NCBI GenBank assembly: GCA_905214315.1
Contig: CAJMLN010000007.1
Coordinates: 392 to 64,391, forward strand
Reading direction: 5' to 3'
Source: an uncultured bacterium
GTDB lineage: Bacteria; Bacillota; Clostridia; Christensenellales; QALW01
Length of the DNA: 64,000 bases
Part shown: positions 4,397-8,309 of the stretch, piece after piece
Numbering within the stretch: the first letter of the stretch is position 1
How the letters are laid out: every line of letters starts with the position of its first letter
The notes under the pieces: generated by a model
Told to the model about the DNA's origin: nothing
Database searches by the model: none
Seen by the model: the letters and a program-made list of their open reading frames with translations, nothing else
Translations under genes and position numbers: made by a program

Positions 4397-4425
4397 TTGA
4401 CAAAAAATTCAGATCCTGCTATAAT
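4397..4425 (+). promoter_or_regulatory. Consensus sigma-70 promoter of the T-box/ior operon
   Basis: Perfect TTGACA (4397-4402), a 17-nt spacer and perfect TATAAT (4420-4425). Confidence 0.7.
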
Positions 4426-4440
4426 TCTATATCATAGAAA

Positions 4441-4690
4441 CCGATGATGGAAAAGAGTAGCCTTGCAGAGCCCCTCAAAGAGAGCTGCCGCGGGTGGAAG
4501 TGCAGCAGGGGATCGCCTGGGGAATGGATTCCGGAGGGCGGCTAATAACCGACAGGTTCCGCACCTGTAAAAAAGGCGGAGCATATGGCTTGTATGCGTG
4601 AGCGGGCGCCGGAAATACGGCGTCAATTTGGGTGGCACCGCAGGAAGAGATATCCTGTCCCAATACGGGACGGGGTTTTTTTGTTTTTTA
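4441..4690 (+). promoter_or_regulatory. T-box leader (tRNA-sensing transcription attenuator) with Trp specifier UGG
   Basis: Stem I elements: GAUGA K-turn; AGAGAG bulge; distal loop GGGUGGAAG closed by GCUGC/GCAGC; specifier-loop context GAA-UGG-A (UGG at 4525-4527). The T-box motif AATTTGGGTGGCACCGC lies at 4625-4641. The terminator CCTGTCCC-AATAC-GGGACGGGG plus T-run lies at 4654-4682. The RBS AAGGAGGA follows. Confidence 0.8.
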
Positions 4691-4703
4691 AGGAGGAAAA
4701 TAC

Positions 4704-6503
4704 ATGGCACGGAGATTTTTGATGGGAAATGAGGCGATCGCCTTAGGCGCGCTGCACGCGGGCATCAGTCTGGCGGCGGGCTATCCCGGAACACCTTCTA
4801 CCGAAATTTTAGAGGCCGCAGCCCGCGGGGATATCCATGCGCAGTGGTCCGTCAACGAAAAGGCCGCGCTGGAGGTGGCCGCCGGCGCGTCTTACGCCGG
4901 GGCGCGTACGCTGGTAACGATGAAGCAGGTGGGGCTCAACGTTGCTTCCGATCCTTTGATGAGCCTGGCCTATGTGGGCGTAAAGGGCGGTATGGTGATC
5001 GTGGCGGCCGATGATCCCGGACCGATCTCCTCCCAGACGGAGCAGGATACGCGGCTGTTTGCGTCCTTTGCCAAAGTGCCGGTATTCGATCCCTCTTCCA
5101 CGCAGGAGGCGTATGAGATGATTCAGGAGGCCTTTGAATATTCCGAAAAATATCAGACGCCGGTGCTGTTTCGGCCTACCACGCGCGTCTGTCACGGCTG
5201 CGCCTCGGTTACGGTAAAGGATTCGTTTGAGGCGCGGAAGCCGGAGGGGTTCGTAAAAGAAACCGCGCGGTGGGTCATCTTTCCGCGGACCTCGTATCTG
5301 AACCACATTAAACTGGAAGAGCGCTATGCTGTTTTAAGCGATGATTTTTCCGGGTATCTGCGGAATTTTACAGATGCCGGCAGAGGGAAAAAGGGAATTA
5401 TTACCGGCGGCATCAGCTATATGTACGTAAAGGAAGCGCTGCGGGAGATCGGCGCGGAGGTGCCGGTGCTGAAGATTTCAACCCCGTATCCGTTTCCGCA
5501 GAAGCTGGCGCTTTCCTTCCTGACGGGGCTGGACGAGGTGCTGGCGGTGGAGGAGCTGGAGCCGGTGCTGGAGAAGGAAATGCTGCTGCTGGCCGGAAAA
5601 GAGCATTTGGCCGTTGACGTAAAAGGAAAGCTGACGGGAAATGTACAGCCGGCGGGAGAAAACAGCACCGAGAGCGTCAGGCGGGCGCTGCTCCGGTTCC
5701 TGGGGCTGAAGGAACAGCCTCAGGAGGACAAAGCGGCGCCGCCGGAGCTGCCGGTGCGTCCGCCGGTGCTCTGCGCGGGCTGTCCGCACCGCGCCTCCTT
5801 CTATGCGGTAAAAAAGGCGATGCAGGGGAAAAAGGCTGTGTTTGCCGGGGATATCGGCTGTTATACTTTGGGAAACGCCATGCCGCTGGATATGGTGGAT
5901 ACCTGCCTTTGCATGGGGGCGGATATCACCATTGCGCAGGGACTGCATATCATAGAGCCCGACGGCGTGCATTTTTCGTTCATCGGCGATTCCACCTTTT
6001 TTGCCTCGGGCATTACGGGAATTATCAACGCGGTATATAATCAGACCGATATCATCGTGATTGTGCTGGACAATTCCACCACGGCAATGACGGGCCACCA
6101 GCCCCACCCCGGCACAGGATACACGGTGCAGGGAAAAAAGACCGCGGCCGTCAGCATTCCGGCGGTTCTGCGGGCTGTGGGCGTGGAGTTTGTAGAGACG
6201 GTGGATCCGTTTGACCAGGAAAAGGCAGTGTGCACGGTTCGGCGCGCAGCCGAAGAAAAGGGTGTAAAGGCCATCATTTTCAAGGCTCCCTGTATTGCGG
6301 TGGAAAAGCGCAGACGGCTGTTTGAAATTGACCGGAACAAGTGCATTAACTGCAGGAAGTGTGTGCGGGAGCTGGGCTGTCCGGCAATTGAGGCGGATAA
6401 AAACGGTGTGAAAATTGAAGCGGATCTGTGCTTCGGATGCTCGCTCTGTGCGCAGGTCTGCCCGGTATCGGCGATTCGGGAGGGGGGAGAAAAGAATGTT
6501 TAA
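4704..6503 (+). CDS. iorA: Indolepyruvate:ferredoxin oxidoreductase, alpha subunit
   Basis: 599-aa ORF. It has a TPP-type 2-oxoacid:ferredoxin oxidoreductase layout with GDIGCYT in the TPP region. C-terminal 2x[4Fe-4S] motifs are CINCRKCVRELGCP and CFGCSLCAQVCP. It is followed by an IorB-like gene. Confidence 0.85.
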   Translation: MARRFLMGNEAIALGALHAGISLAAGYPGTPSTEILEAAARGDIHAQWSVNEKAALEVAAGASYAGARTLVTMKQVGLNVASDPLMSLAYVGVKGGMVIVAADDPGPISSQTEQDTRLFASFAKVPVFDPSSTQEAYEMIQEAFEYSEKYQTPVLFRPTTRVCHGCASVTVKDSFEARKPEGFVKETARWVIFPRTSYLNHIKLEERYAVLSDDFSGYLRNFTDAGRGKKGIITGGISYMYVKEALREIGAEVPVLKISTPYPFPQKLALSFLTGLDEVLAVEELEPVLEKEMLLLAGKEHLAVDVKGKLTGNVQPAGENSTESVRRALLRFLGLKEQPQEDKAAPPELPVRPPVLCAGCPHRASFYAVKKAMQGKKAVFAGDIGCYTLGNAMPLDMVDTCLCMGADITIAQGLHIIEPDGVHFSFIGDSTFFASGITGIINAVYNQTDIIVIVLDNSTTAMTGHQPHPGTGYTVQGKKTAAVSIPAVLRAVGVEFVETVDPFDQEKAVCTVRRAAEEKGVKAIIFKAPCIAVEKRRRLFEIDRNKCINCRKCVRELGCPAIEADKNGVKIEADLCFGCSLCAQVCPVSAIREGGEKNV

Positions 6504-7080
6504 CTGTCTGTTATGCGGCGTAGGCGGTCAGGGAACGGTTTTGGCGTCCAAGCTGATTGCGCTGGCTTCCATGGAAAAAGGGCTTGCGGTAAAGACGGCG
6601 GAAACGATCGGCATGGCGCAGCGCGGCGGCTGCGTGGTCAGCCATGTACGTGCGGGCGATCAGGTGTTTTCCCCCATGATTCCCCTGAAGCAGGCGGATA
6701 TCATCATTGGCTTTGAGCCTGCCGAGGCGGTGCGCTGTCTGCCCTATTTAAAGGACGGCGGTACGGTGATTGTAAACCGGAAGGCGGTAAAGCCGGTAGC
6801 CTCCATGCTGGCGGCCGGGGACTATGACGGCGAAAAAATGCTGGCGTATTTGAAGGAACGGGTGAAAAAGCTGCGGATTGTCGACGGCGAGGACGTCTGC
6901 CGGCAGTGCGGCTCGGCCAAGGTGCTGAATATTGCGCTTTTGGCGGCCGCCGCGGAGACCGGATGCATCGGGATTACGCCCGAAGAGCTGGCCGAGGCAG
7001 TAAAGCAGAAACTGCCGGAAAAATTCCATAGTGTAAATTGTAATGCAATCGCGGTTGTTTGCGGAAAGGAAATACAATGA
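6496..7080 (+). CDS. iorB: Indolepyruvate:ferredoxin oxidoreductase, beta subunit
   Basis: The N-terminus MFNCLLCGVGGQGTVLASKL is typical of IorB/gamma-type subunits. I chose ATG 6496 (G-rich RBS, 8-nt overlap with iorA) instead of the track start 6415, which lies inside iorA. Confidence 0.8.
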   Translation: MFNCLLCGVGGQGTVLASKLIALASMEKGLAVKTAETIGMAQRGGCVVSHVRAGDQVFSPMIPLKQADIIIGFEPAEAVRCLPYLKDGGTVIVNRKAVKPVASMLAAGDYDGEKMLAYLKERVKKLRIVDGEDVCRQCGSAKVLNIALLAAAAETGCIGITPEELAEAVKQKLPEKFHSVNCNAIAVVCGKEIQ

Positions 7081-8309
7081 AGATGACAGAAGAGCAGCTT
7101 GCGCGGATTCAGAAGCAGATCGCCAGGCTGAAGCAGGCCGGCGGATTTTATCAGAAGAAGCTGGCGGGGATGGAAGCCGGCGATATTCAGACCGCCGGGG
7201 ATTTTGAAAAAATTCCCTTCACCTGGAAGGGCGACCTGCGCGAGGCCTATCCCTTAGGGCTTATGGCCGTGCCGCAGGAGCAGATCGTGCGGATTCATTC
7301 CTCCTCCGGCACCACGGGTACGCCGGTGGTCATTCCCTATACGGCCAAGGATGTGGAGGATTGGGCCGTTCAGTTCAGCCGCTGTTATGCCATGGCGGGC
7401 GTAACCAGGGCCGACCGGGTGCAGATTACGCCCGGGTACGGCCTGTGGACGGCCGGCATCGGTTTTCAGGCCGGAGCGGAGCGCCTGGGGGCGATGGCCG
7501 TTCCCATGGGGCCGGGAAACACGGAAAAGCAGCTGCAGATGATGATGGACCTGCAGACGACGGTGCTTTGCGCAACGTCCTCCTACGCGCTGCTGCTGGC
7601 TGAGGAGATCGCCCGCCGCGGGCTGAAGGATCGAATCTCTTTAAAAAAGGGCATTATCGGCTCGGAACGCTGGGGAGAAAAGATGCGCGGCCGCATTTCG
7701 CAGGAGCTGGGCATACAGCTCTATGATATCTACGGCCTTACGGAGGTCTACGGTCCGGGCATCGGCATCAGCTGCGGGGAAAACAGCGGCATCCATTATT
7801 GGGATGACTATGTATACATTGAAATTGTGGACCCCATAACCGGAAAGGTGCTGCCCGACGGGGAGGAGGGGGAAATTGTCATTACCACCCTGCAGAAGGA
7901 GGGCGCGCCGCTTTTGCGCTACCGCACCCATGATCTTTCCCGGATTCTGCCCGGCGCGTGCGCCTGCGGAAGCCGTTATCCGCGCCTGGATACGATTAAA
8001 GGCCGCACGGATGACATGATTAAAGTAAAAGGCGTCAATATTTTCCCCAGCCAGATCGAGGAGCTGCTCAGCGGGATTACGGGCGTTTCCAGTGAATACC
8101 GGCTGACGATAGAGCATTTGCAGGGCCGGGATCACTGTGTCCTTTGCGCTGAAGCGGAGGCCGGAGTGGATCCGGAACGGCTGCGCACAGAGGTGCAGAG
8201 TCTGTTTAAGGCGAAGATCGGTATTACCGTGCAGACGGAGATTCATTCTTTGGGGACATTGCCCCGCAGTGAAAAGAAGACCAGACGTGTGATCGACAAC
8301 AGAAATTAA
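7077..8309 (+). CDS. paaK: Phenylacetate/aryl-acetate--CoA ligase (PaaK family adenylate-forming enzyme)
   Basis: The SSGTTGTP AMP-binding motif, YGLTE and a length of about 410 aa fit the PaaK family. The start ATG 7077 overlaps the iorB stop (ATGA). Confidence 0.8.
   Translation: MKMTEEQLARIQKQIARLKQAGGFYQKKLAGMEAGDIQTAGDFEKIPFTWKGDLREAYPLGLMAVPQEQIVRIHSSSGTTGTPVVIPYTAKDVEDWAVQFSRCYAMAGVTRADRVQITPGYGLWTAGIGFQAGAERLGAMAVPMGPGNTEKQLQMMMDLQTTVLCATSSYALLLAEEIARRGLKDRISLKKGIIGSERWGEKMRGRISQELGIQLYDIYGLTEVYGPGIGISCGENSGIHYWDDYVYIEIVDPITGKVLPDGEEGEIVITTLQKEGAPLLRYRTHDLSRILPGACACGSRYPRLDTIKGRTDDMIKVKGVNIFPSQIEELLSGITGVSSEYRLTIEHLQGRDHCVLCAEAEAGVDPERLRTEVQSLFKAKIGITVQTEIHSLGTLPRSEKKTRRVIDNRN

Follow-up and report, generated by a model that had tools for sequence, protein, structure and literature searches.

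A T-box leader with predicted tRNA-Trp specificity probably controls an iorA–iorB–arylacetate-CoA ligase operon with a proposed role in tryptophan salvage in Clostridia

Results

A T-box leader upstream of the ior operon

The window analysed here, a 64-kb stretch (64,000 nucleotides) of contig CAJMLN010000007.1 from an uncultured bacterium of the Clostridia (GenBank assembly GCA_905214315.1), contains an operon for the two subunits of indolepyruvate:ferredoxin oxidoreductase (IOR; genes iorA and iorB) and an arylacetate-CoA ligase, preceded by an RNA leader of the T-box class that carries a tryptophan codon in its specifier loop. We consider it probable (approximately 0.7) that this leader is an attenuating T-box riboswitch responding to tRNA-Trp and controlling the operon, the products of which would salvage indole-3-acetate into tryptophan. 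The promoter, the leader, the three genes, and the closing terminator are arranged as follows.

4397–4425 (+): sigma-70-type promoter (TTGACA at 4397–4402, 17-nt spacer, TATAAT at 4420–4425, TGn extension; 12/12 match)
4435–4539 (+): T-box Stem I, with the kink-turn (K-turn) GAUGA at 4443, the specifier loop, the AG bulge AGAGAG at 4479, and the distal loop GGUGGAA at 4493
4525–4527 (+): specifier codon UGG (Trp), followed by the purine A4528 and then by the lower stem UUCC
4539–4551 (+): reduced Stem II hairpin of ~3 bp, where 14 positions of the RF00230 model are deleted
4553–4567 (+): Stem IIA/B hairpin, with a loop (UCCGC) complementary to GCGGA at 4576–4580
4605–4624 (+): Stem III, from the RF00230 alignment
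4628–4663 (+): antiterminator (helix UUGGG/CCCAA, 7-nt bulge UGGCACC, helix GCAGGA/UCCUGU)
4652–4683 (+): intrinsic terminator (10-bp stem at 4652–4676 plus U7)
4704–6503 (+): iorA, IOR alpha subunit, 599 amino acids (Pfam POR_N, TPP_enzyme_C, Fer4)
6496–7080 (+): iorB, IOR beta subunit, 194 amino acids (Pfam POR domain, 123 bits)
7077–8309 (+): PaaK-family AMP-forming arylacetate-CoA ligase, 410 amino acids (AMP-binding PF00501, AMP-binding_C_2 PF14535)
8362–8401 (no strand assigned): bidirectional terminator hairpin with a 16-bp stem between A and T runs, closing the three-gene unit

The T-box model of Rfam (RF00230) matches positions 4435–4665 of the forward strand over the whole model (positions 1–219; 86.5 bits; E = 1.7e-19), beginning ten bases 3' of the promoter, and is the sole Rfam match in the window (E-value mode, E = 2.3e-17). 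Stem I is composed of the K-turn (GAUGA/GGAG), a specifier internal loop reading GAA-UGG-A (motif GAAUGGA from 4522), the AG bulge, and the distal loop; its helices were recovered by RNAalifold, and it scores 91.9 bits on a Stem I covariance model built in this analysis. The T-box sequence AAUUUGGGUGGCACCGC is located at 4625–4641, with its UGGC at 4633–4636. The 5' arm of the terminator and the 3' strand of the antiterminator coincide in part, and the two structures, sharing the segment UCCUGUCCC, are therefore mutually exclusive. In the 3' domain of the leader, the fold of lowest energy is the terminator (−16.7 kcal/mol alone), and the antiterminator alone folds at −11.5 kcal/mol. A ribosome-binding site (AAGGAGG, 4690–4696) and the iorA start codon (ATG at 4704) complete the upstream region.

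Stem II is the part of the leader that is reduced; T-boxes devoid of Stem II, such as those of the glyQS type, are known. The 5-bp pairing of UCCGC with GCGGA, read by inspection, may represent a Stem IIA/B pseudoknot. In the closest relative of the window, the sister contig L082, a C-to-U change in the IIA/B loop retains a G-U pair at this site. The promoter is also kept in L082. The window contains four exact copies of TTGACA-17-TATAAT, as compared with an expectation of 0.00 from dinucleotide shuffles, and consensus promoters are therefore a genuine trait of this genome. The three further perfect copies are located at 17032–17060 (−), 23347–23375 (+), and 58253–58281 (−), and one of these extra promoters lies directly upstream of an RNase Y gene (23453–25006).

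A sequence-only reading of this DNA had claimed a perfect promoter, a canonical T-box leader with a UGG specifier at 4525–4527 and a UGGC-containing T-box motif, a terminator hairpin with a U-run in front of the iorA ribosome-binding site, 8-nt and ATGA overlaps between the genes, and Trp-specific control of the operon. The sequence features were confirmed, and the last claim is strongly supported by the comparison and covariation of leaders described below; all the motifs lie where that reading had placed them, and only the word canonical was slightly generous for a leader with a reduced Stem II.

The gathering score of RF00230 is 93 bits, and a default Rfam scan of the window at this threshold returned no match, because the window leader falls below it; the missing bits are attributable to the positions deleted in Stem II. 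At 96.9 bits, the ortholog of this leader in L082 exceeds the Rfam cutoff. Among the 15 ior/ligase-linked leaders scored with Rfam (see below), nine are under the gathering score (86.5, 83.9, 82.8, 78.9, 77.6, 61, 55.9, 48.8, and 39.4 bits), so that more than half of those scored are hidden from routine annotation, which constitutes a practical gap.

Predicted specificity of the leader for tRNA-Trp

In the RF00230 covariance alignment, the specifier slot is occupied by UGG and by no different codon; a purine comes next, and after it the lower stem. According to the TBDB rule, the codon corresponds to positions 2–4 of the specifier bulge, counted from its 3' end (PMC7778990); the lower stem fixes the 3' edge of the loop, and the codon is therefore UGG. 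Each of the 18 ior/ligase-linked leaders, that of the window included, has the same codon at the corresponding position of the alignment. Control T-boxes of unrelated genes at ior loci gave AAC (Asn; L002:674–900) and ACC (Thr; L012:4141–4354), showing that the codon-assignment method is able to return other codons.

The helices that frame the codon are supported by covariation. In an alignment of 13 leaders, which was fitted to the covariance model, 92.3% of the Stem I cells are paired, as compared with 65% in shuffles and 36–45% with slid partners, and compensatory changes are found in 18/18 pairs; in the lower stem, which borders the specifier loop on its 3' side, pairing is complete (100%) and covariation is seen in each of the four pairs. 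RNAalifold applied to an independent MAFFT alignment gave identical helices, in which 16 of the 18 pairs show compensatory changes.

The acceptor end of the cognate tRNA provides a second indication of specificity. Bacterial tRNA-Trp carries G73 as the discriminator base, while tRNA-Met and tRNA-Gly carry A73 and U73, respectively. The discriminator-pairing base N of the UGGN motif is C in 10 and U in 8 of the 18 leaders, and A or G in none. A roughly even split between C and U is also observed for Trp-class T-boxes in TBDB (PMC7778990). This restriction fits G73 of tRNA-Trp (through G:C or G-U pairing), with the discriminator of the organism itself taken from family knowledge, since no tRNA gene, including one for tRNA-Trp, is present within the window.

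UGG is preceded by A in all the leaders, and it also implies a GGN triplet, so that AUG (Met) and GGN (Gly) are formally conserved as well. Together with the score of the window leader below the gathering threshold and its 14 deleted Stem II positions, this would fit a leader that has decayed and no longer switches, or one that is misread and has AUG or GGA as its true frame. Both frames were tried and rejected. The loop boundary set by the covarying lower stem, which places UGG at positions 2–4 from the 3' end of the loop, excludes the AUG frame, whose first A belongs to a conserved GAA/AAA loop motif, and excludes GGN likewise; furthermore, UGGC in 10 of the 18 leaders is unable to pair with A73 of tRNA-Met, and the UGGA needed for U73 of tRNA-Gly was found in 0 of 18. 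As for decay, all the functional motifs, the promoter, and the terminator/antiterminator pair are intact in the window, and these elements are kept in the higher-scoring leader of L082 with a compensatory change. We therefore regard a decayed or misread leader as extremely improbable. Altogether, the control of iorA-iorB-ligase by a Trp-specific T-box is strongly supported, as far as comparative sequence evidence can predict it.

Products of the operon

The three genes overlap successively. The iorB start codon (ATG at 6496) precedes the iorA stop at 6503 by an 8-nt overlap, and the ligase ATG at 7077 overlaps the iorB stop codon (TGA, 7078–7080) as ATGA. The iorA product passes the equivalog cutoff of TIGR03336 (766.4 bits; cutoff, 650.9). 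The iorB product is below all the cutoffs for IOR beta subunits (NF004917, 188 versus 284 bits; TIGR03334, 167 versus 205.8 bits), and from its clear POR domain and its overlap with iorA it is the partner subunit, although a divergent one. The ligase possesses the AMP-forming adenylating fold (PF00501 plus PF14535), with the closest solved structure being a phenylacetate-CoA ligase (PDB entry ID, 4r1l; 3.6e-104), followed by PaaK1/2 of Burkholderia cenocepacia (~1e-100). It scores 406 bits on TIGR02155 (PaaK), the equivalog cutoff of which (646 bits) is not reached. Judging from these matches, the gene is best classed as an AMP-forming arylacetate-CoA ligase of the PaaK family, and not as PaaK itself; its sequence assigns no substrate.

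Occurrence of the leader at other ior loci

We surveyed 80 IorA loci from species-representative genomes, 80 from metagenomes, and L082 with RF00230 and with the Stem I covariance model. The order iorA-iorB-ligase is standard in Clostridia; it was observed at ~66 of the 80 genome loci and, among the 83 later loci (L082–L164), at 70. Beyond the window, 17 further ior/ligase clusters were found to have a T-box, all with UGG: 10 of the 80 genome loci, 6 of the 80 metagenome loci, and L082. The T-box is located directly 5' of iorA at the following loci.

Genome loci: L010, L018, L038, L043, L046, L048, L067, L075, L076, L079
Metagenome loci: L152, L156, L159, L161
Sister contig of the window: L082

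At two more loci, L098 and L146, the T-box is attached to the cluster in other arrangements. The carriers include Ruminococcaceae/Oscillospiraceae, Lachnospiraceae (Parasporobacterium), Tissierella, Sporobacter, and Solibaculum, with Parasporobacterium paucivorans DSM 15970 and chromosome OY762913.1 among the T-box-positive genomes; rumen or gut genomes account for many of the T-box-positive loci. The T-box-positive IorA proteins are dispersed across the IorA tree, frequently beside T-box-negative sisters, and the link has therefore been retained or re-established in several lineages. In L082, the IorA of which is 90% identical to that of the window, the promoter and leader are 91% identical and Stem III shows a compensatory change from C:G to U:A; at L083, the next-nearest relative (73% identity), a T-box was not found. 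Upstream of the T-box-negative ior loci, TRAP-like (G/U)AG repeats were not found either, and the length of the upstream gap at these loci, a crude measure, was uninformative.

Several of the leaders deviate from the common form. A regular expression for the T-box core, tried on the 80 genome loci, missed the degenerate leader of L067 and falsely flagged L017, both of which were corrected by the Stem I model. At L067:3688–3960 (Solibaculum intestinale), the Trp T-box upstream of iorA has the degenerate core GGUGGCAUU in place of GGUGGNACC, and the leader at L018:3689–3955 (Sporobacter termitidis), which scores 39.4 bits with Rfam, is enlarged in its Stem I distal loop by an insertion of ~20 nt. 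An A-rich spacer of 260–330 nt separates the T-box terminator from iorA at L076:3670–3998, L010:1468–1730, and L079:2905–3175; no convincing open reading frame (ORF) was found in these spacers, including the ~300-nt spacer of L076, which was checked for a hidden gene.

Arrangements with the ligase alone and with a tryptophan importer

The arrangements at two loci, L146 and L098, are especially informative. In the metagenome contig L146 (3617–5275), a T-box of 127.7 bits, with the specifier UGG, the bulge UGGC, and a terminator of its own, is located between iorB and a PaaK-like ligase gene, and the upstream iorAB has no T-box; from this position, the tRNA-Trp signal is predicted to control the ligase alone. 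In L098 (490–7635), the genes trpP (PF17099)-ecfA-ecfA'-ecfT, which encode a tryptophan importer of the energy-coupling factor (ECF) type (TrpP, two ATPases, and the T component), are preceded by a perfect promoter and a Trp T-box; iorA-iorB-ligase begins 80 nt after ecfT in the same orientation, and no terminator-like site separates ecfT from iorA. It is plausible from this arrangement that L098 represents a seven-gene Trp-starvation operon joining tryptophan import and indoleacetate salvage. In L016 (9151–9800), a Trp T-box (68.6 bits, UGG) is located 2.8 kb downstream of iorB and precedes a gene for a TrpP-family transporter, not ior; this locus has iorAB, with no ligase gene within reach.

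Proposed mechanism and direction of flux

In the mechanism that we propose, transcription would start at ~4432 from the consensus promoter, and Stem I would present UGG to the CCA anticodon of tRNA-Trp. When the tRNA is uncharged, its 3'-GCCA end would pair with the UGGC of the antiterminator bulge, the antiterminator (4628–4663) would replace the terminator (4652–4683), and RNA polymerase would enter the operon, which would thus be on when tryptophan is scarce. The ligase would then convert scavenged indole-3-acetate into indoleacetyl-CoA at the expense of ATP (to AMP and pyrophosphate), IorAB would form indole-3-pyruvate from indoleacetyl-CoA, CO2, and reduced ferredoxin by reductive carboxylation, and a housekeeping aminotransferase encoded elsewhere would yield tryptophan.

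The biosynthetic (reverse) direction of this scheme is beyond in silico proof, and all the new evidence points to it. A T-box that is on with uncharged tRNA-Trp implies induction upon tryptophan starvation, when degradation of tryptophan would be self-defeating. An AMP-forming ligase spends two phosphoanhydride bonds in making the acyl-CoA, and the PaaK/AMP-forming family favours acyl-CoA synthesis (PMC13285125). The control of the ligase alone in L146 and the linkage of the ior/ligase genes to the tryptophan uptake operon in L098 further support biosynthesis. These same points make it very unlikely that the operon is catabolic, with IorAB oxidising Trp-derived indolepyruvate to indoleacetyl-CoA and the ligase running in reverse or being otherwise employed. 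A degradative role would agree with the first discovery of IOR as an enzyme of peptide fermentation, and the NCBIfam names of these genes carry no direction; however, energy-conserving oxidative pathways recover ATP with ADP-forming acyl-CoA synthetases or with a phosphotransacylase and a kinase, and not with AMP-forming ligases (PMC5817080, PMC13285125).

A broader salvage of aryl acids has also to be considered, in which phenylacetate, 4-hydroxyphenylacetate, and indoleacetate would all be converted to precursors of Phe, Tyr, and Trp, with tryptophan serving as the sentinel (the scarcest and costliest of the three) for an operon not dedicated to it. All three arylpyruvates are substrates of IORs, and the IOR-linked ligase of Bacteroides, assayed with hydroxyphenylacetate, phenylacetate, and indoleacetate, has been named an arylacetate-CoA ligase (PMC13285125); the failure of the window ligase to reach the PaaK equivalog cutoff is consistent with such breadth. 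On the other hand, Phe or Tyr specifiers occur in 0 of the 18 ior/ligase-linked T-boxes, and in L098 the ior/ligase genes are joined to TrpP, a tryptophan-specific transporter. We consider this broader salvage unlikely, although less so than the preceding alternatives; it departs from the salvage of indole-3-acetate into tryptophan in breadth only, the direction being the same.

The salvage of indole-3-acetate into tryptophan under tRNA-Trp control remains the reading that we prefer, and the following points weigh against it. The window leader is below the RF00230 gathering threshold and its Stem II is truncated, and ~90% of the sampled iorAB-ligase loci have no T-box. IOR is reversible, the direction of flux being one that we infer, and the IOR of Bacteroides thetaiotaomicron contributes to the formation of phenylacetate from Phe, as cited in PMC13285125, a point that also favours a catabolic role. 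The substrates of IOR and of the Bacteroides ligase include phenyl- and hydroxyphenyl-type compounds besides indole-type ones (PMC13285125), and an enzyme specificity for Trp only is not established. The operon contains neither an aminotransferase gene nor a gene for an indoleacetate transporter, and no genes for trp biosynthesis were found among the ~50 ORFs scanned in the window.

Other features of the window

The neighbours of the ior operon are unrelated to it (ABC permease, LysR regulator, rhamnosidase, and pyruvate kinase), and among the same ~50 ORFs no aminotransferase or transporter genes were found near the operon. Farther away, the window contains the following genes.

32803–37850 (−): complete rnfCDGEAB cluster, 24.5 kb from the ior operon
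37847–38395 (−): ORF of 182 amino acids beside rnf, with no NCBIfam match
38753–39805 (−): gene for an ApbE flavin-transferase beside rnf
45553–46437: gene for the radical-SAM activase of the glycyl-radical enzyme
46434–48527: gene for a glycyl-radical enzyme (PFL-like plus Gly_radical), only 697 amino acids
48626–49426: divergent gene for an AraC-type regulator beside the glycyl-radical enzyme

The sequence-only reading had invoked the nearby Rnf complex as a possible supplier of reduced ferredoxin. The cluster is real, but owing to its distance and its location on the opposite strand we rejected it as support; unlinked to the ior operon, it shows only the ability of the organism to interconvert NADH and ferredoxin. 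Glycyl-radical arylacetate decarboxylases exist in related anaerobes, and it is conceivable by this analogy that the glycyl-radical enzyme of the window is linked to aryl-acid metabolism. Aminoacyl-tRNA synthetase genes are the commonest targets of T-boxes in Bacillota; for the arginyl-tRNA synthetase gene of the window (31042–32730), no T-box was detected, even in the E-value mode of Rfam.

Discussion

Trp-specific T-boxes have been known in front of trpS, the trp operon of Lactococcus lactis, the anti-TRAP operon of Bacillus subtilis, and genes for trpX/TrpP transporters. The window leader resembles them in the K-turn-containing Stem I, the UGG codon followed by a purine, the AG bulge/distal loop, the IIA/B pseudoknot (putative in the window), Stem III, the UGGN antiterminator bulge, and the competing terminator, and the ior/ligase-linked leaders share with them the C/U split at the discriminator-pairing base (PMC7778990). 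It differs from them in the genes regulated, namely iorAB and an arylacetate-CoA ligase, and in the short Stem II common to the window and L082, while TrpP itself is found under similar leaders in L016 and L098.

The enzymes have also been associated with aromatic amino-acid synthesis. In the archaeon Methanococcus maripaludis, IOR of the same family (MMP0713/MMP0714) is described as feeding aryl acids into this synthesis, based on the genetics of Porat et al. (2004) as cited in PMC4162585. The direction proposed there (from aryl acid through aryl-CoA and arylpyruvate to the amino acid) is the same as ours, but the system is archaeal, has no T-box, and serves all three aromatic amino acids, whereas the window has ior in one bacterial (Clostridial) operon with the ligase and apparently wired to the charging of tRNA-Trp. 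The IORs of fermentative pathways (in Pyrococcus/Thermococcus, paired with an ADP-forming acyl-CoA synthetase, and the clostridial arylpyruvate oxidoreductases, paired with a phosphotransacylase and a kinase) are homologous thiamine-diphosphate/Fe-S enzymes acting likewise on arylpyruvates; in contrast to the window operon, whose partner enzyme consumes ATP and whose expression is predicted to be tied to Trp starvation, these pathways are energy-conserving and degradative.

A bacterial counterpart is found in Bacteroides, where iorAB is paired with an adjacent ligase as in the window. To our knowledge, Bacteroidota are devoid of T-boxes, and the leaders of the Clostridia are therefore independent evidence for the role of this pair. 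For the Bacteroides genes, a biosynthetic role was proposed in 2026, argued from the AMP-forming nature of the arylacetate-CoA ligase; no regulatory evidence was offered, and the contribution of the B. thetaiotaomicron IOR to phenylacetate production is cited in the same paper (PMC13285125). The closest solved structure to the window ligase is, as described above, a phenylacetate-CoA ligase entry.

The physiology itself has a long history. Rumen anaerobes were reportedly shown by Allison and co-workers in the 1960s to carboxylate indole-3-acetate and phenylacetate reductively to Trp and Phe, a physiology and habitats like those proposed here, with neither the genes nor the regulator identified in that tracer work. 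The conversion of phenylacetate to Phe has also been noted elsewhere (PMC7356843). The sequence-only reading had held that this pathway is rarely tied to genes or to a regulator; the pathway has already been tied to ior genes in M. maripaludis (as cited in PMC4162585) and proposed for the IOR and ligase of Bacteroides (PMC13285125), and only the link to a regulator appears to be new. The T-box targets in an in silico survey of 2008 include neither iorAB nor the arylacetate-CoA ligase (PMC2494555), and the TBDB supplements contain no mention of ior/ligase genes. In the searchable literature, no T-box was found linked with indolepyruvate, indole-3-pyruvate, or phenylacetate-CoA ligase, although subscription literature or databases might hold a prior mention. 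Thus the novelty appears to reside in the regulatory link, the riboswitch class, the enzymes, and the physiology of salvage being known individually.

Extending the argument from the window to the group, with somewhat less confidence, we find it reasonably likely that iorAB and the ligase are recurrently members of a Trp-starvation regulon in gut, rumen, and sediment Clostridia, making tryptophan from cross-fed indole-3-acetate and sometimes forming one transcription unit with a TrpP importer. Counting the window, the switch was found in 18 leaders, which belong to several families, once for the ligase only (L146) and once joined to the tryptophan importer (L098). In studies of the gut microbiome, IOR genes serve as markers for the production of indole-3-acetate and phenylacetate, which are host-active metabolites, and the in vivo direction of the enzyme is usually assumed. 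A switch sensing the charging of tRNA-Trp in front of ior/ligase would be a genome-encoded indication that the module supplies tryptophan in these Clostridia. If this is true, the T-box tells in which direction an enzyme pair widely scored as a 'producer' marker for indoleacetate/phenylacetate runs in vivo, and it may also flag tryptophan auxotrophs that live on the products of tryptophan fermentation by other microbes. The 60-year-old rumen physiology of converting indoleacetate to tryptophan would thereby be tied to bacterial genes and to a regulator, a link testable by simple assays.

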